A DNA stretch of 64,000 nt, taken from assembly GCA_002369135.1 (NCBI GenBank), contig DFEY01000002.1, positions 168,601 to 232,600 of the forward strand, in the 5' to 3' direction. Shown here piece after piece: positions 4,106 to 64,000 of this stretch; within the stretch, counting starts at the first letter, position 1, and each line of letters begins with the position of its first letter. The stretch comes from Lachnospira sp. UBA3790 (lineage in GTDB: Bacteria > Bacillota > Clostridia > Lachnospirales > Lachnospiraceae). A model generated the notes under the pieces. The model ran no database searches. It was not told the origin of the DNA and worked only from the letters and a program-made list of their open reading frames with translations. The translations under genes and the position numbers were made by a program.

Positions 4106-4252
4106 CTAGTACCAATCTGACCAATCGTCGTCATCATCATTAGCTGCTGTAGGCTTTCCAGGATCTTCAGATGGTGATGGACTAGTTTTGATAACATCTA
4201 AAATGTCAAACTCTTTAAAGTCCACTTCTGGTTTAATATATAAATCTTTCAT
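4106..4252 (-). CDS. 48-aa acidic peptide MKDLYIKPEVDFKEFDILDVIKTSPSPSEDPGKPTAANDDDDDWSDWY (below the ORF-track length cutoff)
   Basis: ATG at 4252 and TAG at 4106-4108. RBS AGGAGG overlaps the TAG of the giant gene. It lies between that gene and its terminator. Confidence 0.85.
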   Translation of the reverse strand: MKDLYIKPEVDFKEFDILDVIKTSPSPSEDPGKPTAANDDDDDWSDWY

Positions 4253-4264
4253 GTCTCTACCCTC

Positions 4265-7200
4265 CTATTCTTCCTCGTAATCCTTACAGTAGTCAACGAT
4301 TTCTTTCTTCCAACTAGCTAATTTATCATAAGCTGTCTTGTCATTGAATACCTGAGTTGCAATCCATTTAACGCTACGTGGAGTAGTCGTATCACTGTAT
4401 ACAACTTGTGATTCACCATCTACATAGTTAACAATCACATATCCCCTTGATAAGAAGTTTCTAGGAATATTGTAATCTTTAATATCAACTATACCACAAG
4501 CGAATGATCCAGGTTGACCTGTAATCCATTTTCTTGTCTTCTCAGAATTGTTCTGTGCATTGATTAAGTAATCGTACATTTCTGCCTTCTCGATTGTCAT
4601 ATCTTCACCTAGAAGGTCATAGTATGTATCCTCTGCACATATTAGCATACCTGTCTGGAATGCATCTGAACTCAATATATTTGTATCACTTTCTTCGTTA
4701 ACTGTCAACTTACCTAGGAATCTCATACCTCTCTGGTCTTCACCTTGCTTGTAGTACATTGAAACCTTATCAGTCTGTTGCATGTTAACTTCGTTGATTG
4801 AAATGAAGTTTACATTTCTATTCACTGTGTACTCAGCACCTGGTTTGTAGAGATCATCTGTCACTCCTTGTCCCTCACCATCAGTGTACTCTAGTAGGTA
4901 ACCGATAGCTGCTGTATCAGGAAGTGTAATCTTTGTTCCTGCAGGAACTGTGCCACCAGGATTTCCATCTACTGTCCATGTATAATCTGGAACATTAACT
5001 GTTTCAAGATATAGATCTGCCTGGATGTTTGGAATAGTCGCACCTGGAGCATATTCTGTCTGAGTAGCTGTGTCAATAAACTTAGTTACTCCTGGCATAT
5101 CTGTTGGAGTAGTATATCCTGCTCCCTCATCAACTGTTCCTTGCTGTTGTACACCATCAATGTAAACATTGAACGCTCTTTCAATCTTGTAATCCTTATT
5201 ACCATCTACTGTAATAGTTGCTGTAGGAACGTATGTACCTGTAGTACCGTTGATACCTGTAAAGTCCTTAATGTGATCAACCTGGCCAACTGTTGTTGGG
5301 AATGTGTATGTGCTTCCAAGTTTCATTTCATCGGACTTCAATTCTGTCTGTCCATCTGTATTGTAAATCTTAACTAGATATACAGATGTAACTGAAATGT
5401 CGTCATTTACTGTGTAACCTGTACCTGTTTGGTACTTAGTACCAGTACCATCAACAAAGTAAATTGCGTCGTTGTAAGCAGTTGATGTTGGGAATGTGTA
5501 TGTATCTCCATCGTATACTGTAGCAACATCTACTCCATCAATTGTAATTGTGTGCTGAGGTACCATTTCAATCTGGAATGTCATACTCTTATCAACACCA
5601 CTAATTGTACCCTCTGGATTATATGTCTCTGTTGTTCCTTCAATTCCCTTGAAGTCTTGAACATGAGCATATGTTCCTGTAGCTGCTGGGAATGTAAAGT
5701 TATCACCCTTAGCAACATCAAATGTATCTAGTACTGTTTCTCCATCAGTTCCAACGATTGTTACTGTGTAAACTGATTTTACTGAGATATCTCCTGTAGG
5801 AGTCACTGTCTCTTCAGGGTCGTATGTATCTGTTGGGTCACTTACGTTTGCGAAGTGAGTAACTCCAGCATAATCTCCAGTAGCTGCTGGGAATGTGTAT
5901 GAATTTCCTTCAGTAACTGAATCAACTAGTTCTCCATCAATTGTTATAGTGTAAGTTCCCGCTGCTCTAGTAGCTTTAATAACAATATCACCAACAACAT
6001 CAATTTCATCACCTGGCTGTACTGGTTGATCATTGTATGTGTAAGATGCAATACCAGGAACATTAGGCACTGTATACTTGTCGCCAGTTTGTACGCTTAC
6101 TGGTCCTGCATATACTGTTGTTGGATCAGTAGCATCCACAACCTTAGCTGTGTAATTTCTAATCGCTGTTACGTAAATATCTCCATCAAAGTCAGCAAAT
6201 GGTATTGTATCACCTGGTTCATAATATACACCATTCGCCTCATCGTAGTACTTAATTACTCCAGTCTCTACTGGGAATGTGTATGTTTCACCTTCTACCA
6301 CGCTGCCGTCTTCTACATCATCTATAAATACTTTGTACTGTGGTGCGTAGAACTCCCAACTAATGTCAGTAATCTTAGCACCCGATGGCAAGTCACTAAA
6401 GTCAAATTGTACATGACCTAGGAATTCATTGCCTTGTACTGTAGGATCTATAGTTCTAATAGCATCGTCGTATACAAAGTCAATACCGCCATCTTTTGCA
6501 TAATCTTCATCACTGTGGCTATTGTATCCACTCTTAGTGTTGATAGTTCCGTTAGCCATATTTAGTCCACTGTGACTTGGATATCTATGTGGTTCTCCAA
6601 ATCCCTGCTGAACTAGGACAATACCCTTGCCCTGGCCAATTGATCCTTCAGCCTCACTTAGATCTACATTATAGTAGAATCTTAACTTGTAGTGGTTACC
6701 TGTCTTAAGTGGATTTCCATTTGTATCTGTTCCCACTGTTGTGATGTCTCCACCTGCATCTCTATTACCATAGAAGTAATCGTTAGGTATACGCAAGTGT
6801 TCTGCCCATCTAGTGTCTGATTCCGGACCAAAGTCTCCGTTTGTCTCATCAAGTCTGATGCTTGCTTGTGCAATAGCATCTTCGCCTGCTGCATAAACGC
6901 CGTTCTGGTAACTCATCCATCCATTGAAGTATGAGTTAGTGTATCCAAGTAGGACACCCTTTCCTAAAGTAGCGTTTGAAACAATAGGTGTGTAATCCTG
7001 ATGTCCGTCAAATCTACAATCATTAACTAGTGTGTAAACTTCTTCATCAGTTCTCTGATATTCTACCTTGAAGTTTGACAATACTGTACCAAGTGGTAAT
7101 GCTGTACCATCTTGTACTACAGTTCCACCATCTGCATATGTAGTAGGTGTCAAGCTCAAATATAGGTTATTAGGTTCAGTTGATCCTGGTCTGTAGTCTG

Positions 7201-10200
7201 TCTCTGGACATCTTGTAAATTTCTTCTGATATTTAACGTGATATAGTCCGTCGCTCTCATCATACATATCAGCTGTAACATCTATTCTCTCTGGTCTATT
7301 TGGTTCATATCCTTCGTGAGTAATATGAACTGTACCCATCTCAGTAGATGTGAACTCATATGTCATGTAGTAACTTGTATAATCACTTAGTTCTTTGTAT
7401 GCCTCTGTTGGGTTAGGTAGCTTAATCTGAGCACATGCTGGATCCCATCTTTCACCAGCACCTATTCTAACCTTAGGCTGACCTGCTGCAGTAAAGTCTG
7501 GGTCGTAGTATAGAACTGCTCCAGCTCCGCCCCATTGTCCTGCGAATATCTGCCAATCACGAGTACCAGAAACTGTTCTTCCCATTGTACCGTCCACATT
7601 TCTGAACTGGTATGAGAATGGTACATTAGTAATCTCGAACTGGTTGTCTGCAGGTCTGTTATCAGGTACTGCTACCCAGTTACCATCCTTAGTGAATGTA
7701 ATATCTGTAACTCTGAAGTTAGCACCTGTTGGTAGTTCGTCAAGTAAGAACTTAACATCGTTTGTTCCTCCATTATCTTCGCCCTTGAAGATGAATGCTG
7801 GAATTTCAAGTGTATTTTCTCCCTGAGTTAGTGGGAATCCATACTCTTCACCATCTACGTAAACATATAGTTTAGCATTTGGTGCTGTAGTTTCTGTAAT
7901 CTCTAATGTGATTGATCCTGTGTATGTCATCCATGGTTCTAGATCTGCGTTGTAGTCCATCAATGATGCTGATGTCCACCACCATCTATTCTCTGGAGTA
8001 ACAGGATCTCCATGCTCGTCAGTTTCCTGCTGTCCTACTGTGTTCTTTAAGTTGATTAAAGTACTTCCAATATTTGAAGTAGGTGTACCGTCTACCTGAT
8101 ACATTAACTTACCATACTGACCTGTATTTGGATCGTTGATAGCTTTCAATGTCCAAGGTGTGCCTGTTGGTGTAAAGTCTGTATCGTTAGGTACGTTTTC
8201 AAAATCACCATCCTGGTTAGTGAATGTAACACTTGAAACTGATAGTGAACTTCCCTTAGTTAATCCGTCTAGGAAGAATGTTACATCATCATCACTGCCA
8301 GTATACTCGAACGTATCTGTAGTGTATGAGCCAGTAGGTGTAGTTCCAACGTCAATAATTGAAGCGTTGTTATCAATTGCTACCTTCAATTCATCACCAG
8401 CAGCTCCTGATTTACCTGGAGCATCATCGTAATCATATACGATTGTAGCTGTGTATGAATGTCCAACTTCCATATTGTTCTTAGCGTAATCCTCAAGGAT
8501 TGCTAAGTTCCAGTCGTACTCTCCGCCTGGATTATTAACTCTCATCTTTGTGCTACCGATAGCTGCTGGATCACCAACAATATCGTAGTACATACTTCCC
8601 CAAGTAGTTGCACCATCATTGATTGGTTTCAATGTCCATGGTGTGCCTGTTGGGTTAAATCCTGCTGCACTTATAGGTACTTCATCCCATCCTGTTGGAG
8701 TGAATGTAATATCTGTTACCTGGAAGATTGAGCCCTTCTCCAATGAATCAAGTTCGAACATGATGTCATTCTTTCCAGCCTCAACTTCATAAGTGAACTT
8801 AGGAATGTCAATTGTGTATGTATTTGTTCCATTATTTAGGTTCAAGTTAGCTTCACCAGTATTAGCTGCTTCAATGATGTATCTTAGCTGTGGAGTCTTA
8901 CCTGCTTCAGCCTCACCTGCTGTGTAGCTTAATGTGATAGTGGCTGTGTACTCTCTACCATCTACTAGGTTAGCTAAGTAACCTTCTAGTGATGCTGTGT
9001 TCCAGTAGTAGTGGTTACCCATTGCTGTGTTGATAGGCTTAATCTGAACGCTTGATACGCCAGTGCCTGTCTTCTTGTATCTCATGTGACCCCAAGCTGT
9101 GCTGCCATCATTGTTAGCTGTGATTGTCCATGGGTCAGCGTCTACTTCGTCGCCCTTCACGTTAATCCAATCAGCATCCTGTTTTGTAAATGTGATTGAA
9201 GCAACATTGAAGATTGAACCTTTTTCTAATCCAGTAAGTTCGAATAAAATATCGTCTTCGCCCTTAGCTGCATCGTATACAAACTCATCAATTGCGATTG
9301 TGTTTGTACCATTTGTTAATGTTGTATCTTTCTCTCCGTCAAATGCTCCAGCGATTACAGTTCTAAGTTCAGGAGTCTTTCCTGGTGTAGCTTCGCCTGA
9401 AGTATAGTTAACAACGATACTTCCTGTGTATGAGCATCCGTCTTCTAATGTAGCTAAGTAATCTTTAAGTGTTGCTGTGTTCCAGTAGAAGTGCTCGCCT
9501 TCTGCTGCAGTGTTAAGCTTAATAGATGTGCTTGCTACGTCTGATGCTGTACCGTCAACCTTAACTGACATATCACCCCATTGCTGCTGGCCATCATTTG
9601 TAGCTACAAGTGTCCATGGAGTGTTGTTGCCCTGTGAATCTGTTGGTACAACTTCGTCGTTCTGTTCAATTCTCTCCCATCCAGTTGGCTCGAATGTAAT
9701 ATCTGTTACCTGGAAGATTGATTGTTTCTCTAGTCCGTCTAGTTCAAATTCAATGTCATCGTTTCCTGCACTTGCATCATAGATGAATTTGCCAAGATCG
9801 ATTGTGTATGTCTTTGAACCTTCGTCTAGATCTAAGTTACCTTCACCAGTATTAGCTGCAGCTACGATATATCTCAACTGTGGAGTCTTACCTGCTTCAG
9901 CCTGTCCTGCTGTGTACTGAACTGTAATTGTTCCTTCGTATTCTTTGCCGTTCTCTAAGTTAGCTGTATCACTTAAGTAATCTAGTAACTTAGCATTGTT
10001 CCAGTAGAAGTGCTCTCCTACTGCTGTGTTAATAGGCTTAATCTCAACACTTGATACTCCAGTACCTGTCTGTTTGTATCTCATGTGACCCCATTGAGTA
10101 ACGCCATCATAGTTGGCTGTCAATGTCCATGGGTCTGGGTTAGCTTCATCGCCCTTAACGTTTGTCCAGTCAGCATCCTGTTTTGTAAATGTGATGCCTG

Positions 10201-13200
10201 TTACCTGGATGATTGCGCCTTCCTCTAATCCATCAAGTTCGAACAAGATATCCTTGTTTGCAGCTGATGAATCATATAGGAATTCGTCAATTGAAATTGT
10301 GTTTGATCCGCTTGTTAAAGCAGTATCCTTCTCACCTGTGTTTGCAGCTTCAATAACTGTTCTTAGTTCAGGGTCCTTACCTGCAACTGCTTCACCAGGT
10401 GTGTAATTTACAGTAATGCTACCTGTGTATGAGCATCCATCTTCTAATGTGGCTAAGTAGTTCTTCAAAGTAGCTGTGTTCCAGTAGTAGTGCTCGCCTA
10501 CATCTGTAGCGTTTGGTCTAATAAGTGTTGATGAAATATCGCTTGCTGTTCCATCTACCTTATAAGAAATATCTCCCCACTGCTCTTCGCCTGGAGTACT
10601 CTGGTCATTATTTGCCTCTAGAGTCCAAGGTGTGCCAGTAGGTACGAATTCTGTATTCTTAGGTATCTGTACCCATCCAGTTGGTGTGAATGTAATACTT
10701 GTCACCTTAAAGATTGACTGTTTCTCTAGTCCGTCTAGCTCGAACTCGATGTCGTCTGTTCCTGCACTTGAATCATATGTAAATGTAGGAAGATCGATTG
10801 AGTATGAGCCTGAGCCTGAGTCAAAGTCAAAGTTTGCTTCACCAGTTTCAGCCGCAGCCACGATGTATCTTAGCTGAGGAGTCTTACCTGCTTCAGCTGT
10901 ACCTGCTGTGTACTGAACATTGATTGTTGCATCATATTCAACGCCGTTTGTTAGATTTGCACCATCGCTTAGATAGTCTTCTAATACTGCGTTGTTCCAG
11001 TAGTAGTGCTCGCCTACTGCTGTGTTAATAGGTTTAATTTCAACACTTGATACACCAGTACCTGTCTGTTTGTATCTCATGTGACCCCACTGATCCACGC
11101 CATTGTAGTTAGCTGTCAATGTCCATGGAGTTGGGTTAGCTGAATCTCCCTTAACGTTTGTCCAATCAGCATCCTGTTTTGTAAATGTGATACCTGTTAC
11201 CTGGAAGATTGAGCCTTCTTCTAATCCGTCAAGTTCGAATAGAATGTCTTTATTCTCATCAGCTGAGTTGTAAATGAACTCGCTTATTGAAATTGTATTT
11301 GATCCAGCTGTTACTGCTGTATCCATCTCACCTGTTCCTGCAGCTGCAATAACTGTTCTTAGTTCAGGTGTCTTACCAGCAACTGAATCGCCTGCTACAT
11401 AGTTAAATGTAATGCTACCTGTGTATGAGCATCCATCTTCTAATGTAGCTAAGTAATTCTTCAAAGTAGCTGTGTTCCAGTAGTAGTGCTCGCCTACATC
11501 TGTAGCGTTTGGTCTAATAAGTGTTGATGAAATGTTACTTGCTGTTCCATCTACCTTATAAGACATGTTGCCCCATTGCTCTTCGCCTGGAGTACTCTGA
11601 TCGTTTGTAGCTGTTAGAGTCCAAGGTGTGCCTGTAGGTACGAACTCTGTGTTATTTGGAACCTTTGTCCATCCTGTTGGTGTGAATGTAATTTCAGTTA
11701 CCTTAAAGATTGACTGTTTCTCTAATCCATCTAGCTCAAATTCGATGTCGTCATTTCCTGCACTTGCATCATATGTAAATGTAGGAAGATCGATTGTGTA
11801 TGTCTTTGAGCCTTCGTCAAAGTCAAAGTTAGCTTCACCAGTCTCTGCTGCAGCCATGATATATCTCAACTGTGGAGTCTTACCTGCTTCAGCTTGTCCT
11901 GCTGTGTACTGTACTTTAATTTGACCATCATATTCAACGCCGTCTGTTAGATTTGCACCATCACTTAGATAGTCTTCTAATACTGCGTTGTTCCAGTAGT
12001 AGTGCTCGCCTACTGCTGTGTTAATAGGTTTAATTTCAACACTTGATACACCAGTACCTGTCTGTTTGTATCTCATGTGACCCCACTGATCCACGCCATT
12101 GTAGTTAGCTGTCAATGTCCATGGGTCTGGGTTAGCTTCATCGCCCTTAACGTTTGTCCAGTCAGCATCTAACTTAGTAAATGTAATATTAGATACCTGG
12201 AATACTGAACCTTCCTCTAGTCCATCAAGTTCGAACAAGATATCCTTGTTTGCAGCTGATGAATCATATAGGAATTCGTCAATTGAAATTGTATTTGATC
12301 CGCTTGTTAATGCAGTATCTTTCTCACCTGTGTTTGCAGCTTCAATAACTGTTCTTAGTTCAGGTGTCTTGCCTGCTACTACTGTACCAGGTGTGTAATT
12401 TACAGTAATGCTACCTGTGTATGAACATCCATCTTCTAATGTAGCTAAGTAATTCTTCAAAGTAGCTGTGTTCCAGTAGTAGTGTTCGCCTACATCTGTA
12501 GCGTTTGGTCTAATAAGAGTTCCGTTAACATCACTTGCTGTTCCGTCAATCTTATAAGACATATCGCCCCACTGCTCCTCACCTGGAGTACTCTGGTCAT
12601 TTGTAGCCTTTAGAGTCCAAGGTGTGCCTGTAGGTACGAATTCTGTATTCTTAGGTACCTGTTTCCATCCAGTTGATGTGAATGTAATGTCAGTTACCTT
12701 AAATACTGATTTCTTCTCTAGTGAATCTAATTCAAATTCTGCATAGTTATCTTCATTAGGATCATATGTGAATGCAGGAACGTCGATTGTGTATGTTCCG
12801 CTTCCACTTCCTAGTGCCATTGTTTCTTCGCTAATGCCTGCAACAGGAATGTTATATAGAAGTTCTGGTGTCTTACCACTCTGAGCTTCGCCTGCTGTGT
12901 ACTGTACAGTAATAACTGCTTCGTACTCTTCGCCTGCTGTTAATGTTTGGCCATAAGCCATATCTGTAAGCTTAGCAACGTTCCAATAGAAGTGATCTCC
13001 CATTGATACAGACATTGGTTTAACCTGTACGCTTGATACGCCAGTACCTGTCTGTTTGTATCTTAAGTGACCCCACTGCTCTTCGCCATCGTTGTTGGCT
13101 GTTATGATCCATGGAGTTGCTGTGTCTGAACCTCCCTTAACATTGGTCCAATCACTATCTTGTTTTGTGAAGTTGATTGCTGTTACCTGGAAGATTGAAC

Positions 13201-16200
13201 CTGCTTCTAGACCTGTAAGTTCGAACATGATGTCTTTTCTTGTGTCTGCAGCACTGTAGATAAACTCATCAATTGAAATTGTGTTTGTTCCACTTGATAA
13301 GTTAGTATCAATATTTCCGTCGTATGCACCCTCAATTATTGTTCTTAATTGTGGTGTTTTACCTACTTCTGCTGTACCAGGTGTGTAGTTAACAGTGATG
13401 CTTCCTGTGTATGAGTTTCCATCTTCTAAAGTATTTAGATAATTCTTTAGAGTAGCTGTCTCCCAGTAGAAGTGCTCTCCTACTGCAGATTTATTAATCT
13501 TAAGCTGTGTAGCTGATACGTTTGAAGCTGTTCCTGTTACCTTGTATGACATATCACCATACATACCTTGATCGCCATCTGATAGATCTGTATCTGGTAT
13601 CCAGTCAGCACGAAGTGTCCAAGGTGTTCCACTTGGATTTACTGTAGTTGGATTATCAGGATCAGAGTTCTGAGTTACTTTTGTCCAACCTGTATCTGTA
13701 AATGTGATATCAGTAACTTTAAATACTGATTTCTTCTCTAGTGAATCTAGTTCAAATTCAACACTGTTGTCTGCACTAGAATCATATGAGAATGCAGGAA
13801 CGTCAATTGTGTATGTTCCGCTTCCGCTATTCAATACCTTAGTAGCCTCACTTACTTCAGCAACAGGGATATTATATAGAAGTTCTGGAGTCTTACCTGA
13901 CTCAACTTCGCCTGCTGTGTACTGAACAGTGATAACTGCTGAGTATTCTTTGCCAGGTGTCAATGTCTGGCCGTATGTCATATCTGTAAGTTTAGCTGAA
14001 TTCCAATAGAAGTGATCTCCTATTGATGTGTTCATTGGCTTAACCTGTATGCTTGATACGCCAGTACCTGTCTGTTTATATCTTAGGTGTCCCCACTGAT
14101 CTGTGCCATTATTATTAGCAGTCAAGATCCATGGAGTTGCTGTAGCTGTTCCACCTTTAACGTTTGTCCAATCAGCATCTACTTCTGTGAAGTTAATTTC
14201 TGTTACCTGGAAAATTGAACCTTCCTCTAATCCGTCAAGTTCAAATAGAATGTCATTGTTCTCAGCTGTAGATTCGTAGATAAACTCATCTATTGCGATA
14301 GTATTTGATCCAGCTGTTACCGCTGTATCCATCTCGCCTGTTCCTGCAGCTGCAATAACTGTTCTTAGTTCAGGTGTCTTTCCAGCTACTGCTGTACCTG
14401 AAACGTAGTTAAATGTAATGCTACCAGTGTATGAATGACCATCTTGCAATGTTGCCAAATAGTTCTTCAACTCTGCCTTATTCCAGTAGAAGTGCTCTCC
14501 TACTGCTGTAGCATTAGGTTTGATTAGTGTAGATGAAATATTTGATGCTGTTCCATCTACCTTATATGACATGTTACCCCACTGCTCTTCGCCTGGTACG
14601 CTCTGGTCGTTTGTAGCTGTTAGAGTCCAAGGTGTACCTGTTGGTACAAATGCAGTGTTATTAGGAACCTTTGTCCATCCTGTTGGAGTAAATGTGATTT
14701 CTGTTACTTTGAAGATTGATGCCTTCTCTAGTCCATCAAGTTCAAATTCGATATCGTCTTTGCCTGCACTTGCATCATATGTAAATGTAGGAAGATCGAT
14801 TGTATATGTCTTTGAGCCTTCGTCAAAGTCAAAGTTTGCTTCTCCGGTGTTAGCTGCAGCCATGATATATCTCAACTGTGGAGTTTCACCTGCTTCAGCT
14901 TCACCAGCTGTGTACTGTACTTGAATCTGAGCATCATATTCAACGCCGTCTGTTAGATTAGCTACATCGCTTAGATAATCTTCTAGTACTGCGTTGTTCC
15001 AGTAGTAGTGGTTGCCCATTGCTGTAGCCATAGGCTTAATCTGAACACTTGCAACACCAGTACCAGTCTGTTTATATCTCATGTGACCCCATTGCTCTAC
15101 GCCATCATAGTTGGCTGTCAATGTCCATGGATTAGCTGTAGCTGTGTCGCCCTTAACGTTTGTCCAGTCAGCGTCTACTTCTGTAAATGTAATGCTATTT
15201 ACTTTGAAAATTGAATCTTTCTCTAGACCAGTCAAATCGAACAAGATGTCCTGATTTGCACTGTCTGAGTGATACATAAATTCGCTTAGGTTAATTGTGT
15301 ATGTTCCAGAACCACTGTTTAGAACCTTATCTGCTTCGCCTGTTCCAGCTTCTTCCACAACATATCTTAGTTTTGGAGTCTTGCCTGCTTCAGACTCTCC
15401 AGCAGTATAGCTAACACTAATAGTTCCTGTGTATGAATGACCATCTTGCAAACCAGCACCACCCTGTGCAACTGTTTTGCTTAGGTAATTCTTTAGAGTA
15501 GCCTTATTCCAGTAGAATGGTTCTCCCACTGCCACTAGTTTAGGCTTGATAGATGTGCCTGATACGCCACTTCCATCTACCTTGTACCACATATCACCAT
15601 ATAGACCCTGATCTCCATCTGAAAGATCTGTGTCTGGCTGATAATCTGCATATAGTGTCCAAGGGCTGCCTGAAGGTGTGACATCCTGATTAGGTTTAAC
15701 CTTATGCCATCCATCATCTACTTGAGTGAAAGTTACACTCTTAACAGTTAGTTCAGAATCTGCAACTAACTCGTCAAATAAGAATTTAAGATTTGCATCG
15801 CTTCCGTCAAAGACGAACTCTTGTAGTGAAAGAGTATTGTCGCCTTTTGCTAAGTCAAATGCTTGCTCTGTTCCACCAAATGGTGTAACAAATAGCTTTG
15901 TATCATTTCCGTACGCGTCTGTTAATGTAGCTTCTGAAGAATTTACTACTATGCTAGCAGTATATCTTTCATCTTCTTCTAGAATTGTTCTAATATTACC
16001 TGTTTGAGAAGTTCCATCAGCTTTGTTAACAGTAGCTTTGTAGTTTCCTGTTAAATCAGCGCTCATCCACCACCATCTCTGTGCTGGGTCCGTAATTCTA
16101 GCGCCCTGAGGAGTTCTCTCTGCTTCCCCAATAGCTCCTGCCATCTTGAATGTTATTCTTGCAGGATCATTTGTATCAACAGTTGTATCATGTTTATATC

Positions 16201-17398
16201 TGATATCTCCGTATGATGAAGAATTATCATTATTTACTGATGTACTCCAATTAGAGTTTGAAATAGCTGAGTCTATAGCAAATGGCGCTTTAGTCCAACC
16301 ATCATAAATACTATTAAATTCAATACTCTTAATGTAGAATTCAGCGTTTTGTGGCATCTCTACATAATCAAATTGGATATTATCATTATCTGCTGGGTTA
16401 TATTTGAACTTATCTATAGTAATTTCATTATCACCTGCAGTTAATGGAACATCATACTGATGGCCAAATGCAACTATTCTAATAGTATGACTACCTGATG
16501 TAGCAGTATCAGTATTGATTACGATTGTACCTGTGTAAGCTGAACCGTTATCTAGTCCAAGAGTAGTACCATAACCATATAGTGATGCTGAATCCCACCA
16601 CCAGTCATTAGAGTTATTGCCATCTACGTAATCTTTCTTTAGGTGCATTCTACTAATGTCAGAAACCTGCTTAGAAGAATCCATCTTGTAGTATTGATTA
16701 CCCCATGCAGTAGATGCATTGTTATTGGATCTTAGTGTCCATGGTGATCCTGCTTCTGGTACGAAGTCAGTATCGTCAAATGGACATCTCTGCCAGTCAT
16801 ATAGGTTAGTTGTTGTTTCTTTTGGTGTGAATGTAATACTTTCAATTTCGAAACCACCAACCTGTGCTCCGGCTGCTCCACCTTGTCCATTATTACCATA
16901 TCCAATAGCTAACACAAAATTAGCAGTGCCTGGTGTGACATCAGCTGTATATGTTAGTTCAGCGCCTGGACTTAGACTCTTACTAGTAGGTGCCATATCA
17001 GCAGTACCACCAGTAGTTCTAATATTAAGCGTTGTAGTCTGGGATGTAGTATAGTTGCTAGGTGCTTTAACATTGATAGTCATTGCGTATGATTGTCCTG
17101 CTGTCAAACCATACACAGACTTCAAGTCTCTTACTTTCCAGTAAGCACCGTCCCAACCATAAACATCGTGTGAATAAATGAAGCCATCTACTTTACTAGC
17201 ATCATTATATGATGCGGCTTCATTATTCCACTGGTTTTGGACGACTGTGTAAATCCATTGTCCAACCGTAGTTTCAGAGCCGATGACACAAGAGTTAGCC
17301 TGTGCTGCATCGACTTTGGACGGTGTGAACGTAATTCCAGTTACCGTCATTGCAATCGCTGCAACGATTGCAGTCAGTCTTTTCAAGTTCTTTTTCAT
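4265..17398 (-). CDS. Giant secreted multidomain surface protein (4377 aa), putative adhesin/glycan-binding scaffold
   Basis: 13-kb open frame. Start moved from the track's 17416 to ATG 17398 (RBS AAAGGAG; signal peptide MKKNLKRLTAIVAAIAMTVTGITFTPSKVDAA). Contains 18 ~165-aa repeats, a core domain, 8 short repeats resembling InlB-B/Flg_new repeats, and a ~175-aa C-terminal domain. No LPxTG, SLH or C-terminal TM segment seen. Confidence 0.9.
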   Translation of the reverse strand: MKKNLKRLTAIVAAIAMTVTGITFTPSKVDAAQANSCVIGSETTVGQWIYTVVQNQWNNEAASYNDASKVDGFIYSHDVYGWDGAYWKVRDLKSVYGLTAGQSYAMTINVKAPSNYTTSQTTTLNIRTTGGTADMAPTSKSLSPGAELTYTADVTPGTANFVLAIGYGNNGQGGAAGAQVGGFEIESITFTPKETTTNLYDWQRCPFDDTDFVPEAGSPWTLRSNNNASTAWGNQYYKMDSSKQVSDISRMHLKKDYVDGNNSNDWWWDSASLYGYGTTLGLDNGSAYTGTIVINTDTATSGSHTIRIVAFGHQYDVPLTAGDNEITIDKFKYNPADNDNIQFDYVEMPQNAEFYIKSIEFNSIYDGWTKAPFAIDSAISNSNWSTSVNNDNSSSYGDIRYKHDTTVDTNDPARITFKMAGAIGEAERTPQGARITDPAQRWWWMSADLTGNYKATVNKADGTSQTGNIRTILEEDERYTASIVVNSSEATLTDAYGNDTKLFVTPFGGTEQAFDLAKGDNTLSLQEFVFDGSDANLKFLFDELVADSELTVKSVTFTQVDDGWHKVKPNQDVTPSGSPWTLYADYQPDTDLSDGDQGLYGDMWYKVDGSGVSGTSIKPKLVAVGEPFYWNKATLKNYLSKTVAQGGAGLQDGHSYTGTISVSYTAGESEAGKTPKLRYVVEEAGTGEADKVLNSGSGTYTINLSEFMYHSDSANQDILFDLTGLEKDSIFKVNSITFTEVDADWTNVKGDTATANPWTLTANYDGVEQWGHMRYKQTGTGVASVQIKPMATAMGNHYYWNNAVLEDYLSDVANLTDGVEYDAQIQVQYTAGEAEAGETPQLRYIMAAANTGEANFDFDEGSKTYTIDLPTFTYDASAGKDDIEFELDGLEKASIFKVTEITFTPTGWTKVPNNTAFVPTGTPWTLTATNDQSVPGEEQWGNMSYKVDGTASNISSTLIKPNATAVGEHFYWNKAELKNYLATLQDGHSYTGSITFNYVSGTAVAGKTPELRTVIAAAGTGEMDTAVTAGSNTIAIDEFIYESTAENNDILFELDGLEEGSIFQVTEINFTEVDADWTNVKGGTATATPWILTANNNGTDQWGHLRYKQTGTGVSSIQVKPMNTSIGDHFYWNSAKLTDMTYGQTLTPGKEYSAVITVQYTAGEVESGKTPELLYNIPVAEVSEATKVLNSGSGTYTIDVPAFSYDSSADNSVEFELDSLEKKSVFKVTDITFTDTGWTKVTQNSDPDNPTTVNPSGTPWTLRADWIPDTDLSDGDQGMYGDMSYKVTGTASNVSATQLKINKSAVGEHFYWETATLKNYLNTLEDGNSYTGSITVNYTPGTAEVGKTPQLRTIIEGAYDGNIDTNLSSGTNTISIDEFIYSAADTRKDIMFELTGLEAGSIFQVTAINFTKQDSDWTNVKGGSDTATPWIITANNDGEEQWGHLRYKQTGTGVSSVQVKPMSVSMGDHFYWNVAKLTDMAYGQTLTAGEEYEAVITVQYTAGEAQSGKTPELLYNIPVAGISEETMALGSGSGTYTIDVPAFTYDPNEDNYAEFELDSLEKKSVFKVTDITFTSTGWKQVPKNTEFVPTGTPWTLKATNDQSTPGEEQWGDMSYKIDGTASDVNGTLIRPNATDVGEHYYWNTATLKNYLATLEDGCSYTGSITVNYTPGTVVAGKTPELRTVIEAANTGEKDTALTSGSNTISIDEFLYDSSAANKDILFELDGLEEGSVFQVSNITFTKLDADWTNVKGDEANPDPWTLTANYNGVDQWGHMRYKQTGTGVSSVEIKPINTAVGEHYYWNNAVLEDYLSDGANLTDGVEYDGQIKVQYTAGQAEAGKTPQLRYIMAAAETGEANFDFDEGSKTYTIDLPTFTYDASAGNDDIEFELDGLEKQSIFKVTEITFTPTGWTKVPNNTEFVPTGTPWTLTATNDQSTPGEEQWGNMSYKVDGTASNISSTLIRPNATDVGEHYYWNTATLKNYLATLEDGCSYTGSITFNYVAGDSVAGKTPELRTVIAAAGTGEMDTAVTAGSNTISISEFIYNSADENKDILFELDGLEEGSIFQVTGITFTKQDADWTNVKGDSANPTPWTLTANYNGVDQWGHMRYKQTGTGVSSVEIKPINTAVGEHYYWNNAVLEDYLSDGANLTNGVEYDATINVQYTAGTAEAGKTPQLRYIVAAAETGEANFDFDSGSGSYSIDLPTFTYDSSAGTDDIEFELDGLEKQSIFKVTSITFTPTGWVQIPKNTEFVPTGTPWTLEANNDQSTPGEEQWGDISYKVDGTASDISSTLIRPNATDVGEHYYWNTATLKNYLATLEDGCSYTGSITVNYTPGEAVAGKDPELRTVIEAANTGEKDTALTSGSNTISIDEFLYDSSAANKDILFELDGLEEGAIIQVTGITFTKQDADWTNVKGDEANPDPWTLTANYDGVTQWGHMRYKQTGTGVSSVEIKPINTAVGEHFYWNNAKLLDYLSDTANLENGKEYEGTITVQYTAGQAEAGKTPQLRYIVAAANTGEGNLDLDEGSKTYTIDLGKFIYDASAGNDDIEFELDGLEKQSIFQVTDITFEPTGWERIEQNDEVVPTDSQGNNTPWTLVATNDGQQQWGDMSVKVDGTASDVASTSIKLNTAAEGEHFYWNTATLKDYLATLEDGCSYTGSIVVNYTSGEATPGKTPELRTVIAGAFDGEKDTTLTNGTNTIAIDEFVYDAAKGEDDILFELTGLEKGSIFNVASITFTKQDADWINVKGDEVDADPWTITANNDGSTAWGHMRYKKTGTGVSSVQIKPINTAMGNHYYWNTASLEGYLANLVDGREYTATITLSYTAGEAEAGKTPQLRYIIEAANTGEANLNLNNGTNTYTIDIPKFTYEVEAGKNDIMFELDSLEKGSIFQVTDITFTPTGWDEVPISAAGFNPTGTPWTLKPINDGATTWGSMYYDIVGDPAAIGSTKMRVNNPGGEYDWNLAILEDYAKNNMEVGHSYTATIVYDYDDAPGKSGAAGDELKVAIDNNASIIDVGTTPTGSYTTDTFEYTGSDDDVTFFLDGLTKGSSLSVSSVTFTNQDGDFENVPNDTDFTPTGTPWTLKAINDPNTGQYGKLMYQVDGTPTSNIGSTLINLKNTVGQQETDEHGDPVTPENRWWWTSASLMDYNADLEPWMTYTGSITLEITETTAPNAKLYVYVDGEEYGFPLTQGENTLEIPAFIFKGEDNGGTNDVKFLLDELPTGANFRVTDITFTKDGNWVAVPDNRPADNQFEITNVPFSYQFRNVDGTMGRTVSGTRDWQIFAGQWGGAGAVLYYDPDFTAAGQPKVRIGAGERWDPACAQIKLPNPTEAYKELSDYTSYYMTYEFTSTEMGTVHITHEGYEPNRPERIDVTADMYDESDGLYHVKYQKKFTRCPETDYRPGSTEPNNLYLSLTPTTYADGGTVVQDGTALPLGTVLSNFKVEYQRTDEEVYTLVNDCRFDGHQDYTPIVSNATLGKGVLLGYTNSYFNGWMSYQNGVYAAGEDAIAQASIRLDETNGDFGPESDTRWAEHLRIPNDYFYGNRDAGGDITTVGTDTNGNPLKTGNHYKLRFYYNVDLSEAEGSIGQGKGIVLVQQGFGEPHRYPSHSGLNMANGTINTKSGYNSHSDEDYAKDGGIDFVYDDAIRTIDPTVQGNEFLGHVQFDFSDLPSGAKITDISWEFYAPQYKVFIDDVEDGSVVEGETYTFPVETGVIKYYDEANGVYYEPGDTIPFADFDGDIYVTAIRNYTAKVVDATDPTTVYAGPVSVQTGDKYTVPNVPGIASYTYNDQPVQPGDEIDVVGDIVIKATRAAGTYTITIDGELVDSVTEGNSYTFPAATGDYAGVTHFANVSDPTDTYDPEETVTPTGDISVKSVYTVTIVGTDGETVLDTFDVAKGDNFTFPAATGTYAHVQDFKGIEGTTETYNPEGTISGVDKSMTFQIEMVPQHTITIDGVDVATVYDGDTYTFPTSTAYNDAIYFVDGTGTKYQTGTGYTVNDDISVTSVYLVKIYNTDGQTELKSDEMKLGSTYTFPTTVGQVDHIKDFTGINGTTGTYVPTATITVDGNKDYKIERAFNVYIDGVQQQGTVDEGAGYTTPTDMPGVTKFIDTATQTEYAPGATIPNIQADLYLETVNVPDYTWTVDGNPGGTVPAGTKITLPDTAAIGYLLEYTDGEGQGVTDDLYKPGAEYTVNRNVNFISINEVNMQQTDKVSMYYKQGEDQRGMRFLGKLTVNEESDTNILSSDAFQTGMLICAEDTYYDLLGEDMTIEKAEMYDYLINAQNNSEKTRKWITGQPGSFACGIVDIKDYNIPRNFLSRGYVIVNYVDGESQVVYSDTTTPRSVKWIATQVFNDKTAYDKLASWKKEIVDYCKDYEEE
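4795..6337 (-). repeat. Eight ~60-70-aa short repeats (InlB B-repeat/Listeria-Bacteroides-repeat-like)
   Basis: Recurring Y.(V/I).IDG.....V..G..YTFP......Y.PG..I....D pattern in the translation. Confidence 0.6.
7685..16798 (-). repeat. Intragenic array of 18 ~165-aa domains; units 3-16 alternate A/B with ~1-kb period
   Basis: A units start (T/D)GW..V...P.GTPWTL and B units start (A/S)DW(T/I)NVKG...PW. 10968-11128 is identical to 11964-12124 (161 nt, offset 996 nt). Confidence 0.92.
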
Positions 17399-17590
17399 CT
17401 CATTTTCTCCTTTCAAGTAAAGAACAATTCTGTCCCAAAAAGGGCCATAGTAACACCAATTGGGCGCACTAGGCCCAATGATACATATTATTGTATCTTA
17501 TATCTTATAATAGTATACTTTTTTATGTAAGTGCATATATTTTAGGTCGGTATGATTTTTAGTTTCAACACGCTAAAGCGGTATAAAATT

Positions 17591-25190: not shown

Positions 25191-25261
25191 AGGGGCGTAG
25201 TTCATCGGTAGAATAAGAGTCTCCAAAACTCCAGAGGTGGGTTCGATTCCTACCGCCCCTG
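25191..25261 (+). tRNA. tRNA-Trp(CCA), CCA end not encoded
   Basis: Cloverleaf AGGGGCG/CGCCCCT, D-stem GTTC/GAAT, anticodon loop CTCCAAA, T-loop TTCGATT, discriminator G. Positions 27/43 are an A-C mismatch. Confidence 0.93.
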
Positions 25262-25265
25262 CTAT

Positions 25266-25369: not shown

Positions 25370-26719
25370 CTATATTTGCTCGCTTGCTTCTTTTATATCA
25401 TTAACGCCAATCAATTCTATGTCATTTTCTCTTATATTCTTCAAAGATACGGCTGGCATTATCACTTTCTTAAAGCCTAGCTTTTTGGCCTCAGCCACAC
25501 GCTGCTCTGCCTGAGAGATTGCTCTAACCTCTCCAGCCAATCCAACCTCGCCAAAGACTATGGTGTCTGGACTTATCACTCTATTTTTAAAACTACTGAT
25601 AAATGCCATTACAAGAGCAAGGTCAAGCGCCGGTTCCGTAACCTTCATTCCACCTGCTATGTTTACATACGCATCGTAGTCTGCCATTTGAAGTCCAATT
25701 CGCTTTTCGATAACAGCCATAAGCAAGTTTACTCTGTTGTAATCTGTGCCCACTGCTGTTCTTCTTGGCTGTCCAAAGTTTGTGCGAGAAAGTAGTGCTT
25801 GTATTTCAACAAGCATTGGTCTGGTGCCTTCCATCAAGCATGCAACCACTGTACCTGATGCATCTTTTGCCCTACCTTCTAGCATATATTCAGATGGATT
25901 AAGAACTTGATTAAGCCCATTGTTTCTCATCTCAAAAACGCCTATCTCATTAGTTGAACCGAAACGGTTTTTTACTCCGCGTATAATCCTATAAACCGCC
26001 TGTTTGTCTCCCTCAAAGTACAAAACAGTATCTACCATATGCTCTAGCATTCTAGGACCTGCCACAGTACCTTCTTTAGTCACATGTCCTACTATAAAAA
26101 TAGGAATATTCTCTCCCTTAGCTAGTTGCATCAAAGAATTAGTAGACTCGCGCACCTGTCCTACGCTACCTGGCGCTGTACCTATATCTTCACGATACAT
26201 AGTCTGGATAGAATCAACTACCACTGCATCTGGCTTTTGATCAAGCACTGTTGCTTCGATAATTTCAAGATTAGTTTCAGATAATAGTTTTAAACTGTCA
26301 CTGAAATCTCCCATTCTGTTTGCGCGAAGTCTAATCTGCTTCAAAGACTCCTCACCTGAGATATATAAAACACTTAGTCCACTGTTTGCCATGTTTTGGC
26401 ACACCTGCAAAAGAAGTGTGGACTTTCCAATACCTGGATCTCCACCTACTAGCACTAAACCACCTGGCACTATTCCACCGCCCAACACGCGGTCAAGCTC
26501 ACTAAAGCCTGTGGTGATTCTCTCCTCGTCCTTTGCAGTTACCTGATTAATAGCAACTGGATCGTTTACTAATAAATTTTTGTGAGCGTGTACCTTCTTT
26601 TTAGAACTAGGTGCCTCCGCGCAAGTTCCACCCGCATGACATGCAGGACAAACGCCAAACCAAGTGGTCTGCTCGTTGCCACACTCTGTACAATAAAATA
26701 AGTTTTTCTCTTTGGCCAT
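25370..26719 (-). CDS. radA: DNA repair protein RadA/Sms
   Basis: N-terminal CxxC...CxxC, GGDPGIGKSTLLLQ and KNRFG motifs, Lon-like C-terminus. Confidence 0.96.
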   Translation of the reverse strand: MAKEKNLFYCTECGNEQTTWFGVCPACHAGGTCAEAPSSKKKVHAHKNLLVNDPVAINQVTAKDEERITTGFSELDRVLGGGIVPGGLVLVGGDPGIGKSTLLLQVCQNMANSGLSVLYISGEESLKQIRLRANRMGDFSDSLKLLSETNLEIIEATVLDQKPDAVVVDSIQTMYREDIGTAPGSVGQVRESTNSLMQLAKGENIPIFIVGHVTKEGTVAGPRMLEHMVDTVLYFEGDKQAVYRIIRGVKNRFGSTNEIGVFEMRNNGLNQVLNPSEYMLEGRAKDASGTVVACLMEGTRPMLVEIQALLSRTNFGQPRRTAVGTDYNRVNLLMAVIEKRIGLQMADYDAYVNIAGGMKVTEPALDLALVMAFISSFKNRVISPDTIVFGEVGLAGEVRAISQAEQRVAEAKKLGFKKVIMPAVSLKNIRENDIELIGVNDIKEASEQI

Positions 26720-54648: not shown

Positions 54649-54672
54649 CATTTTTTCTCTCGAACGAGTTAT

Positions 54673-57408: not shown

Positions 57409-57422
57409 AATAAATCCCCTTT

Positions 57423-58853: not shown

Positions 58854-58862
58854 GCGAACCTC

Positions 58863-60302: not shown

Positions 60303-60311
60303 TTTATCTTC

Positions 60312-60605
60312 CTATTCAAAAGTCTTTGGCACAATGTATGCTTCTTCATTTCTATCCGGTGCATTTTTAAGCATATTTTCTCTGTCATCTCCGTTAGTAA
60401 CTTCGTCTTCGCGGAAGACGTTATTCACTGGGAAAACATGACTCATAGGCTCCACACCAGAAGTGTCAAGTTCGTTTAATTTATCGATATAATCTAGGAT
60501 TTCTCCCATGTCTTTTTTAGCTTTTTCCTTCTCCTCATCAGAGAGTTCAAGCTTCGCCAAAATGCCGACATAATCGATTGTTTCGTCTGTAATTTTGTTA
60601 GCCAT
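60312..60605 (-). CDS. gatC: Asp/Glu-tRNA amidotransferase subunit C
   Basis: [16 protein letters not shown] and NAP......VPK motifs; adjacent to gatAB. Confidence 0.93.
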
Positions 60606-60742
60606 AAAGACCTCCTAACCACTTATTTGTGGCATATTTTGTGGCTAAATCCACAACTAATAGTTTAAAGAATCTAGCATAAAAAGTCAAACTATTGTAT
60701 AATCGTTTTATAAAGTAGAACGGATAAAATAAGGAGAAAGAT

Positions 60743-61390: not shown

Positions 61391-61405
61391 AAAATCTATA
61401 TCTAC

Positions 61406-61464
61406 AAAAAGAAAAACGGTAGGTCCTCACTTAAAATCGTTCGGTACCTACCGTTTTTCTTTTT
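61406..61464. terminator. Bidirectional terminator at a convergent junction
   Basis: Perfect 19-bp inverted repeat AAAAAGAAAAACGGTAGGT / ACCTACCGTTTTTCTTTTT with a 21-nt loop. Confidence 0.8.
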
Positions 61465-61474
61465 TTATTATTTA

Positions 61475-62236: not shown

Positions 62237-62300
62237 ATGTATCTCCTCCTTTCCTTAAATTTCGTCCTCTGCAAAGGCCTTGTCCCTTACAAAAATATAT

Positions 62301-62328
62301 AAAAGGCCAGCCACCTAAGTAGCTAGCC
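62301..62328 (-). terminator. Intrinsic terminator after dapL
   Basis: Minus strand GGCTAGCTAC-TTAG-GTGGCTGGCC-TTTT; 10-bp stem with two G:U pairs. Confidence 0.8.
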
Positions 62329-62341
62329 ATTTATTCATAAA

Positions 62342-63565
62342 TTATTTTGAAATCTCTTTGATTCTTCTGATAGCCTCGATTGTGTTTTCTCTACTACCAA
62401 ATGCTGTAAGTCGGAAGTATCCTTCTCCACTTGGTCCAAATCCTGAACCAGGAGTTCCAACGATATTTGCCTTCTCTAGTAGGAAGTCAAAGAATTCCCA
62501 AGATGTCATTCCTTCAGGTGTCTCAAGCCAAGCGTATGGAGAGTTTACTCCACCACTTACTTTATATCCGGCTTCTTTCAAGCCCTCTACTATAATCTTT
62601 GCATTTTCCATATAGCGAGCAACCATTTCCTTAGTCTGCTGTTTACCCTCTTCTGAGTAAACTGCCTCGCCGGCTCTCTGGATAATGTATGGTGCACCGT
62701 TAAACTTAGTTCCGTGACGTCTTGCCCATAAAGCATTAAGCGAAGTTCCATCTGAATCTTTAAGTTCCTTAGGAACAACAGTAAATCCAAGACGAGTTCC
62801 TGTAAATCCAGCATTCTTTGAGAAAGATCTAATCTCGATAGCGCAAGTCTTTGCTCCATCACATTCGTAAATACTGTGTGGAACATCATCTTCTGTTATG
62901 TATGCTTCGTAAGCTGCATCATATATAATAACAGCATTCTTCTCGTTAGCGTAATCAACCCACTTCTGCAAATCAACCTTCTTGAAAGCTGCTCCCGTTG
63001 GGTTGTTTGGTGAACATAGATAAATAATATCTGGAGTTTCCTCTGGCAAATCTGGGCAGAAGTTATTTTCCTTTGTACAAGGCATATAAATAACATCGCT
63101 CCACATTTCAGTATCAGCATCGTATGTGCCAGTTCTTCCATCCATTACGTTTGCATCCACATAAACTGGGTAGACTGGATCGCACACTGCTATCTTGTTA
63201 TCAACTGCGAAAATATCTCCAATATTTCCTGAGTCTGACTTTGCTCCGTCTGAGACAAAGACCTCATCAGGCGCAATATCAACACCTCTAGCCTTAAAAT
63301 CATTTTCCACTATTGCTTCGCGAAGGAATGCGTAACCTAAGTCTGGCGCATATCCATGGAATGTAGCAGGATCTGCCATCTCATCAACTGCTTTGTGCAT
63401 AGCATCAATGACTGCTGGAGCTAAGGCTTGAGTAACATCACCTATACCAAGACTTATTACATCTTTGTCTGGGTTGGCTTCCTTAAAAGCTGCTACTTTC
63501 TTAGCAATATTAGAAAATAAATAGCTTCCTGGTAATTTCAAGTAATTATCATTAACTTTAAACAT
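62342..63565 (-). CDS. dapL: LL-diaminopimelate aminotransferase
   Basis: [31 protein letters not shown] and [12 protein letters not shown] motifs. Confidence 0.95.
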
Positions 63566-63625
63566 TTTAAATCCTCTTTCTTTTTTATTTACGCGAATTT
63601 GGCGCTCGCTCGAGCGCCAAACATT

Positions 63626-64000
63626 TTATACATTAGCTAAGTATTTATCAATCTCCCAGTCAGTAACCTGTGAAGTATATTCCATCCACTCGTCCATCTT
63701 GGCTGTAGTATATTTCTTGAATGCATCTTTGCCCATTGTTTCTTTCATAAGTTCAGATTTCTTCATATACTTAACAGCGTTGTACAAGTTCTTTGGTAAC
63801 TGGATGATTCCTGCTTCTTCTCTCTCCTCATCTGTCATAGAGTAAATATCTCTCTGAACACTAGGTGGAGGTGTAAGACCCTTCTTAATTCCATCTAGAC
63901 CAGCAGCCAAGCATGCTGCAAATGCTAGATAAGGGTTACATGAGCAATCCGGACAACGAAGTTCCACTCTAGTACCAGCTCCACGTGTTGCTGGAACTCT
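63626..64000 (-). CDS. glnA: Glutamine synthetase type I, 3' fragment (start lies outside the window)
   Basis: RVPATRGAGTRVELRCPD.SCNPYLA and LP.NL..A...V..WE...YL motifs. Confidence 0.92.
   Translation of the reverse strand, partial: RVPATRGAGTRVELRCPDCSCNPYLAFAACLAAGLDGIKKGLTPPPSVQRDIYSMTDEEREEAGIIQLPKNLYNAVKYMKKSELMKETMGKDAFKKYTTAKMDEWMEYTSQVTDWEIDKYLANV

Follow-up and report, generated by a model that had tools for sequence, protein, structure and literature searches.

The organism very probably uses the standard bacterial code, with UGA as a stop codon that works but is strongly disfavoured; this grading covers the whole explanation, including selection against TGA, buffering of the TGA stops that remain, and a link to the single tRNA-Trp of the genome. 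The starting point was the window, that is, the whole stretch of 64,000 nucleotides analysed, in which none of the tallied genes ends in TGA.

4106..63628, 39 genes on the minus strand and 2 on the plus strand: run of 41 stop codons, 25 TAA, 16 TAG and 0 TGA (own gene call, ORF list and direct reading of the stop of the 48-aa ORF)
4106..4252, minus strand: putative 48-aa ORF ending in TAG (ATG...TGG TAC TAG; read from the sequence)

These counts agree exactly with the initial annotation, whose 16 TAG stops are reached only when the 48-aa putative ORF is included. The lack of in-frame TGA in the long ORFs of the window also holds, but is true by construction under translation table 11.

The source organism is a rumen Lachnospiraceae bacterium. 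Stops were tallied across its genome (1.62 Mb, 36.6% GC; assembly 96% complete, with the tRNAs of the rRNA operons missing) using a home-made gene caller based on the longest ORF and a codon score, so that start codons, and hence overlap counts, are approximate. Among 1,357 called genes, at a coding density of 92% under table 11, 985 end in TAA, 311 in TAG and 61 (4.5%) in TGA. TGA is thus scarce genome-wide, the check for which a tally against relatives had been proposed, and its share lies below that of low-GC relatives. TAG had been called unusually frequent; its share of 22.9% is close to the bacterial norm of ~20% at any GC content (PMC8789281).

Release factor 2 and the remaining TGA stops

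One of the causes suggested for the scarcity of TGA was a weak or absent RF2. This is contradicted by the prfB gene:

G000:C2:8612-9715, minus strand: prfB (RF2), 526 bits against a cut-off of 370, SPF and GGQ present

RF2 has a dN/dS of 0.016-0.018 and was found in 40/40 relatives searched; prfA and prmC are also present. Strong purifying selection keeps RF2 in place, so that the genes still ending in UGA are terminated. The initial annotation had pointed to the integrity of prfB and to its frameshift site as a check, and the gene indeed proved intact, but the site is missing. prfB encodes its 367 aa in one uninterrupted frame, with no programmed +1 frameshift (in-frame CUU UGA C after an internal Shine-Dalgarno, near codon 25), and the same is true of all 24 congeners. 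The frameshift motif (GGGATTCA-CTT-TGA-C) is carried by roughly 50 of 80 related Lachnospiraceae prfB loci and the frameshift is missing from about a third; its loss is common and patchy. The genus thus pairs very low TGA use with a frameshift-less prfB, opposite to the general rule that frameshift loss goes with high TGA use.

An explanation that gives the tRNA no role is a low supply of RF2. If RF2 were low relative to RF1, UGA would terminate slowly and be selected against. The absence of the autoregulatory frameshift from prfB is consistent with this, as are the tracking of TAG:TGA use by RF1:RF2 ratios across bacteria and the reportedly low RF2 of AT3-rich species (discussed in PMC8789281). 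However, in the view of Ho and Hurst, release-factor ratios adapt to stop usage and do not drive it (PMC8789281), and RF2 bears no sign of decay at the sequence level. We consider this explanation unlikely.

Contrary to what had been proposed, TGA has not been purged. The 61 TGA-ended genes include dnaE, murF and uvrC, and of 11 TGA stops, 9 are shared with sister species. The products of the TGA-ended dnaE, murF, uvrC and rlmD reach the final positions of their NCBIfam profiles. No genes split by in-frame TGA were found, and only two TGA stops precede more than 200 open codons. In both cases the open frame past the stop proved to be a gene of its own: one for a membrane protein, after a glycosyltransferase gene, and one for a second MATE transporter, after a first.

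Four-nucleotide overlaps (NTGA) hold 22 of the 61 TGA stops, with start calls approximate, and T occupies position +4 after 64% of them. An in-frame back-up stop lies ≤6 codons past TGA in 67% of cases, compared with 34% in the +1 frame (p = 0.004). Some TGA-ended genes have long in-frame extensions past the stop, namely C1:158121-159572 (32 codons), C1:345221-347173 (21), C1:834473-835087 (23) and C1:581369-584251 (121). A tandem stop stands directly past 21% of TGA stops, versus 13% for TAA and 4% for TAG. This was set aside as specific evidence because eubacteria in general are enriched in stops at codon +1 past TGA, which is attributed to a +4T preference (PMC6764699). The leftover TGA stops are probably largely constrained or buffered: about a third lie in NTGA overlaps, in which bases are shared with the next start codon, and most have a T at +4 and an early in-frame back-up stop.

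Selection at the stop position

Intergenic stop-type triplets occur in a TAA:TAG:TGA proportion of 55 : 22.8 : 22.2, and real stops in one of 72.6 : 22.9 : 4.5. TGA at stops therefore reaches 0.20x its neutral share and TAG 1.0x. TGA is under-used specifically at the termination position and is selected against there.

Mutation bias alone would have TGA stops drift to TAA at 37% GC, with no need for selection at the stop codon. Across bacteria, TGA use does drop as GC falls (PMC8789281), and in our own sample TGA makes up 19-27% of stops in higher-GC relatives versus 4-13% in low-GC ones. The asymmetry between TAG and TGA contradicts this reading: the two codons have equal base content and near-equal intergenic shares, yet they are five-fold apart at stops. 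TGA is, moreover, common in the off-frames of genes, and its share of stops falls as codon bias rises: it is 7.7% for the quartile of lowest bias and 0.7% for the top decile. Mutation bias as the sole cause is therefore very improbable.

Composition still accounts for part of the pattern in the preferred explanation, in which two forces would act jointly: AT-biased composition would favour TAA, and selection against the leakiest terminator, probably strongest in highly expressed genes, would remove TGA from stops. In bacteria generally, TGA is the leakiest stop and its use climbs with GC, TAA use drops and TAG stays near 20% (Povolotskaya 2012; Korkmaz 2014; Ho and Hurst, PMC8789281). The present low-GC genome follows this trend with 73% TAA, 23% TAG and few TGA, and with a preference for TAA in codon-biased genes. 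It departs from the trend in that its TGA deficit goes beyond composition, with TGA use about half that of similarly AT-rich relatives.

The tRNA-Trp of the genus and the standing of UGA

The genome encodes a single tRNA-Trp:

25191..25262, plus strand: sole tRNA-Trp gene of the genome, anticodon CCA (ARAGORN and sequence)

It has a U11-A24 pair in the D stem (GTTC/GAAT) and an A27·C43 mismatch, which leaves a 4-bp anticodon stem, with 27-43 unpaired over four pairs and a 7-nt anticodon loop, CUCCAAA. All 22 congeners with the CCA gene recovered, and one genome of another family, carry an identical anticodon arm. U11-A24 is the state made by the E. coli Hirsh suppressor mutation. In Bacillus subtilis, tRNA-Trp natively carries A24 with a 5-bp stem and prfB is frameshifted; low-level natural UGA-to-Trp readthrough was reportedly seen there by Lovett et al. 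in 1991 (J Bacteriol). The present tRNA resembles that Firmicute tRNA-Trp(CCA) in U11-A24 and differs in its 4-bp stem, as does the genome in its frameshift-less prfB.

Both A24 and an unpaired 27-43 have been tied experimentally to UGA misreading (PMC13092985 for the C27A stem variant). In E. coli, the C27A tRNA gave ~2.5-fold more UGA readthrough, although the mismatch tested was A·G and the one found here is A·C (PMC13092985). Together, A24 and the 4-bp stem of the sole tRNA-Trp(CCA) would be expected to make it decode UGA, a near-cognate codon, as Trp more often. The T at +4, the early back-up stops and the NTGA overlaps would be no more than indirect signs of such readthrough in vivo. The earlier idea of a suppressing tRNA-Trp is to this extent supported by the two misreading-linked features. 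Likewise, the proposal that UGA is leaky or poorly terminated gains support from these features and from its under-use at the termination position, although the weak RF2 and the purging that went with it did not stand.

Other tRNAs that might read UGA were looked for. ARAGORN reported 38 tRNAs in the assembly; none is a tRNA(UCA), an absence that is not absolute in a 96% complete assembly without rRNA-operon tRNAs, and none is a tRNA-Sec. A pattern search of 34 congeners yielded no Trp-like tRNA(UCA), the three hits not being tRNAs, and partial matches in three congeners that could have been second tRNA-Trp copies were not tRNA genes. The tRNA-Trp of two low-GC families (f13 and f14; G036 and G037) was not recovered by three pattern designs. 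The accessible part of the supplements of PMC13092985 contains no match to the tRNA-Trp of this genus.

TGA depletion is stronger in the genus than in relatives of similar GC. TGA shares are 4.7% and 4.0% in the sister species and 6.9% in the pooled genus (54/784), compared with 13.6% (41/302) in low-GC relatives with 5-bp stems (Fisher p = 0.002, uncorrected for kinship). Pooled over genomes below 40% GC, which are not phylogenetically independent, 4-bp stems go with 7.3% and 5-bp stems with 13.6% (p = 0.002). The ratio of the TGA share at stops to the intergenic one is 0.20 here and 0.27 for the genus; it is 0.56 for low-GC relatives with 5-bp stems and 0.77 for relatives of higher GC. The two families with unrecovered tRNA-Trp are also TGA-poor (7.1%). 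The sole tRNA-Trp(CCA), with A24 and a 4-bp stem, is the likely reason for the stronger depletion in the genus, as its sequence suggests; in our sample, however, the link comes down to one or two independent evolutionary events and is thus confounded with phylogeny.

Fakih et al. (NAR 2026, PMC13092985) reported an association between 4-bp-stem tRNA-Trp and reduced UGA use for 13 of 19 orders, Lachnospirales among them. Like the standard-code bacteria of that survey, the present genome has a sole tRNA-Trp with an unpaired 27-43 and a 7-nt loop, and its UGA share lies below that of 5-bp genomes of the same order, one of those with the effect. Since position 24 is an A, paired with U11, the tRNA belongs to the majority class of that survey, which has A9C and/or G24A besides the 4-bp stem, rather than to the 'Blastocrithidia-like' subclass (4-bp stem without A9C or G24A). 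Its UGA share of 4.5% is far lower than the 22% median of 4-bp Lachnospirales (PMC13092985).

A stronger reading is that the genome is a true ambiguous intermediate, with substantial reading of UGA as Trp and a code heading to UGA=Trp as in Mycoplasmatales. The sole tRNA-Trp with A24 and a 4-bp stem, the genus-wide absence of the UGA-sensing frameshift from prfB and the enrichment of back-up stops past TGA would fit. So would the combination of low GC, low TGA and motif-less prfB, which has been described for Acholeplasmataceae (PMC12421855). Those bacteria and the phytoplasmas are Mycoplasmatota that keep prfB and the UGA stop; the present genome belongs to a different phylum-level lineage (Clostridia, Lachnospiraceae), in which the frameshift is lost from many prfB loci anyway. 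The back-up stops proved equally clear in relatives with 5-bp stems. They were therefore rejected as a mark of the 4-bp tRNA, and UGA leakiness seems to be a feature of the whole order and not of this tRNA in particular. Strong purifying selection on RF2, essential genes ending in TGA at stops largely conserved in sister species, and the lack of both a tRNA(UCA) and in-frame TGA in the searches described also speak against this reading, which we regard as highly improbable.

Table 4 bacteria (Mycoplasmatales, Hodgkinia, Zinderia and others; UGA = Trp) are likewise AT-rich with TGA-poor gene ends, and in Zinderia the only Trp tRNA is a 4-bp-stem tRNA-Trp(CCA), as here. Unlike them, the present genome keeps a constrained RF2 where table 4 goes with loss of prfB, and has 61 TGA-ended genes where table 4 goes with in-frame TGA in conserved genes and no TGA ends; it also has no detected tRNA(UCA). 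Codon capture is defined by RF2 loss, a tRNA-UCA and in-frame TGA, and none of these steps has been taken here. We know of no sister group with UGA=Trp for this lineage.

A related reading is that the genus is a free-living standard-code lineage with measurably ambiguous UGA, in which the tRNA-Trp with A24 and a 4-bp stem would insert Trp often enough to push TGA to ~3% of unconstrained stops, prfB autoregulation having been lost. This is an improbable reading of the sequence features; if true, it would represent an early, reversible stage of UGA capture outside Mollicutes and endosymbionts.

The TGA-free window and its meaning

The absence of TGA from the window is simply a sample from the 4.5% genome-wide rate, with no local oddity. 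With about 1 gene in 22 ending in TGA, a 41-gene run without it is expected: the probability of 0 of 41 at the genome's own rate (61/1,357) is 0.15, and when a frame of 41 consecutive genes is slid along the genome, 210 of 1,237 positions (17%) are TGA-free. At the median UGA share of Lachnospirales, 22-27% of stops (PMC13092985, Suppl. Table S4), the probability of zero in 41 would be ~4e-5 by our own arithmetic. Since the zero is unremarkable at the genome's rate but not at that of the order, the window correctly signalled a genome-wide depletion. That it was a sampling accident in an otherwise ordinary genome, as the mere 41 genes and the P of 0.15 might suggest, is already refuted by the genome-wide tally, far below the order medians and also below the 13.6% of 5-bp-stem low-GC relatives, and has next to no probability.

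For calibration, the lack of TGA from ~40 genes in a row is, in an AT-rich Firmicute, no evidence of a changed code. TAG at exactly its neutral share and TGA at one fifth provide a useful contrast, and the 61 well-defined native UGA stops offer sites for readthrough measurement. Taken together, the code of this organism is the ordinary standard one, and the genome is a strong example of the trend published in the 2026 survey (PMC13092985), low UGA use with such tRNAs, including in Lachnospirales, and a clean natural case of UGA avoidance in company with a 4-bp-stem tRNA-Trp.

Stop codon use in the window and genome

The assembly of Lachnospira sp. UBA3790 (G000), in which the window spans C2:168601-232600, consists of three contigs with 1,618,155 bases (36.6% GC, 96% complete). 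In public genomes, its RF2 is matched most closely (98% identity) by rumen MAGs labelled Eubacterium sp. (yak, reindeer), with Lachnospiraceae next. Genes were called with a script that takes the longest ORF together with a codon score, and 41 genes touch the window. For the window tally, the left-hand gene, which terminates beyond the window, was left out, and one short ORF was included:

4106-4252, minus strand, predicted 48-aa ORF, ends TGG TAC TAG

This ORF lies 12 bases beyond a giant gene (4265-17416, minus strand; 4,383 aa) that is also TAG-terminated. With our own gene call, the tally of the initial annotation was reproduced exactly, with 41 stops at 4106-63628 comprising 25 TAA, 16 TAG and 0 TGA. 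Its remark on the absence of in-frame TGA from the long ORFs is correct, though this follows by definition from the standard bacterial code (table 11).

Genome-wide, the same caller returned 1,357 genes (coding density 92%), which end in TAA (985, 72.6%), TAG (311, 22.9%) or TGA (61, 4.5%), in proportions that are steady over gene-length classes. TGA scarcity is thus real at the level of the genome. At a TGA rate of 4.5%, the probability of finding 0 of 41 is 0.15, and 210 of 1,237 sliding 41-gene windows (17%) lack TGA. The window is therefore typical for its genome, and the genome itself is TGA-poor. For comparison, the median UGA shares that a 2026 survey reports for Lachnospirales are 22.2% and 26.9% for genomes whose tRNA-Trp(CCA) has a 4-bp or a 5-bp anticodon stem, i.e. 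without or with the 27-43 pair (Suppl. Table S4, PMC13092985). TAG, which had been called unusually frequent, is not: it makes up 23% of stops, versus ~20% of bacterial stops whatever the GC content (PMC8789281).

Composition, selection and relatives

Intergenic stop-type triplets of G000, counted on both strands, are 55% TAA, 22.8% TAG and 22.2% TGA, and TGA is likewise abundant in the off-frames of its genes. At real stops, the share of TAG is unchanged (22.9%) whereas that of TGA drops to 4.5%, or 0.20x, which rules out AT bias as the sole cause of TGA depletion. From the lowest quartile of the codon-bias score to the top decile, the TGA share falls from 7.7% to 0.7% (1/136) and that of TAA rises from 67% to 90%. 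TGA depletion is selection at the termination position, in agreement with the ranking of TGA as the leakiest of the stops (PMC8789281).

In 21 genomes of relatives (20-200 kb each, called with the same script), TGA made up 4.7% (8/169) and 4.0% (3/75) of stops in the two closest species, 6.9% (54/784) in the pooled genus (single samples of at least 80 kb span 3.6%-13.5%), 13.6% (41/302) in pooled low-GC families with 5-bp stems (31-38% GC), and 19-27% in families at 43-54% GC. The ratio of TGA at stops to intergenic TGA was 0.20 in G000, 0.27 in the genus, 0.38 in G025 (a genome of another family), 0.56 in the 5-bp low-GC group and 0.77 at higher GC. Low TGA with TAG exceeding TGA is therefore common to the AT-rich part of the order; the depletion is about twice as strong in the genus and strongest in the species cluster of G000.

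Release factor 2 and TGA as a stop codon

The initial annotation had attributed the missing TGA to poor termination at UGA (weak or absent RF2, or a suppressing tRNA-Trp), in an intermediate state preceding codon capture. The RF2 gene lies outside the window:

C2:8612-9715, minus strand, prfB, ~160 kb upstream of the window, 526 bits against TIGR00020 (cut-off 370)

Its product, encoded in one frame (367 aa), carries the SPF and GGQ motifs, and comparison with two 98%-identical orthologues gave a dS of ~0.7 and a dN/dS of 0.016-0.018; prfB was found in 40/40 relatives searched. On contig C1, prfA adjoins a gene for a PrmC-like NPPY methyltransferase. ARAGORN detected 38 tRNAs in G000, with one tRNA-Trp(CCA) and neither a UCA anticodon nor tRNA-Sec among them, and a pattern search of 34 congeners for a Trp-like tRNA(UCA) gave three matches, none a tRNA. 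Since prfB is intact and constrained and no tRNA(UCA) or tRNA-Sec was found, neither a weak or absent RF2 nor UGA reassignment is supported. tRNA-Ala and tRNA-Ile are both missing from the 38 tRNA genes, and contigs C1 and C2 contain N runs. The assembly probably lacks or masks the rRNA operons and the spacer tRNAs within them, so that failure to find a given tRNA here is not decisive.

G000 and all 24 congeners searched have a single-frame prfB with no programmed +1 frameshift site. The canonical site GGGATTCA-CTT-TGA-C occurs in ~50 of the best 80 related Lachnospiraceae prfB loci and is absent in about two dozen from several genera; because the loss is patchy within the family, we give it little weight. 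In a 12,000-genome study, motif loss accompanies high TGA use, the notable exception named being prfB-retaining Mycoplasmatota, in which GC and TGA use are low and the motif is absent (PMC12421855). The genus of G000, which resembles Acholeplasmataceae in having prfB without the site despite very low TGA use, is a second exception to this rule.

TGA still serves as a stop codon in G000. The 61 TGA-ended genes include those for DNA polymerase III alpha, MurF, UvrC and RlmD, all of full length by comparison with NCBIfam equivalogs (in DNA polymerase III alpha, residues 1-1158 align to profile positions 3-1149 of 1151; the MurF match extends to position 418 of 418), and the median distance from TGA to the next in-frame stop is 4 codons. 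Two sister species provided orthologues whose C-termini align; in these, 9/11 TGA stops were conserved and the other two were TAA in the relative; for TAA- or TAG-ended orthologues, TAA/TAG exchange was seen in 21/139 against sister G022 and 0/56 against sister G004. Genes split by TGA were considered and rejected: two TGA stops precede >200 open codons, yet separate same-frame genes follow.

At 22/61 TGA stops, a 4-nt NTGA overlap joins the next gene's called start, where a change to TAA would abolish that start codon; 11 more overlap otherwise. T occupies +4 after 64% of TGA, 37% of TAA and 29% of TAG stops. An in-frame back-up stop within 6 codons follows 67% of TGA stops, compared with 34% when those downstream sequences are read in the +1 frame (Wilcoxon p = 0.004), 42% after TAA and 35% after TAG; after TAA, there was no early in-frame signal relative to the +1 frame. 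Overrepresentation of stops at codon +1 following TGA is general and has been put down to +4T preference (PMC6764699). For eubacteria generally, a published survey saw no fail-safe stop enrichment past codon +1. As the frame-specific signal is also present in other congeners (p = 0.002) and equal in low-GC Lachnospirales with a 5-bp stem (p = 0.002), we read early back-up stops as an order-wide sign of UGA leakiness, with nothing peculiar to G000.

tRNA-Trp and the status of UGA

25191-25262, tRNA-Trp(CCA), D stem GUUC/GAAU (U11-A24), anticodon arm A-GAGU/CUCCAAA/ACUC-C

A24 is the base that the Hirsh UGA-suppressor mutation introduces in E. coli. An A·C mismatch at 27/43 sits atop four anticodon-stem pairs, and the arm is letter-identical in G000, 22 congeners and G025; in other families, eight have five pairs and two a C27·U43 mismatch. 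In an E. coli reporter, unpairing of 27-43 increased UGA readthrough ~2.5-fold; a 4-bp-stem tRNA-Trp is the only one in 6.5% of standard-code bacteria, whose UGA shares span 1%-88% and, in 13/19 orders, Lachnospirales among them, are significantly lower than in 5-bp relatives (PMC13092985). Because A24 is present, the G000 tRNA belongs to the majority class of that survey and not to its "Blastocrithidia-like" class. Below 40% GC, our pooled TGA shares differ in the same direction (7.3% with 4-bp versus 13.6% with 5-bp stems, p = 0.002); since one or two evolutionary events lie behind this contrast, and TGA is also low (7.1%) in two low-GC families without an assigned stem state, we only infer that tRNA-Trp is a cause of TGA avoidance.

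One congener MAG (G008, 81% complete) has a tRNA-Trp orthologue with anticodon GCA (loop CTGCAAA) at L169 1501-1572 (G008:C194:20040-20111), adjoining a homologue of the window gene 25370-26719. The Trp-type body and A27·C43 are retained; ARAGORN assigns the gene to tRNA-Cys, and the MAG yielded no CCA copy. Its GCA anticodon may reflect either an error in the consensus or a genuine change. Partial 3' copies of tRNA-Trp in three other congeners (L234, G005:C51; L235, G018:C76; L236, G014:C5), 42-55 nt long, 93-95% identical and not tRNA genes, look like attachment-site scars of elements integrating into tRNA-Trp.

The genetic code of G000 is standard, none of the steps of UGA capture has taken place, and a pre-capture intermediate is improbable. 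TGA scarcity in this genome is a strong case of TGA avoidance as already known, linked to GC and to selection and reinforced in lineages with a 4-bp-stem tRNA-Trp, and the stop tally of the window correctly pointed to this genome-wide property.
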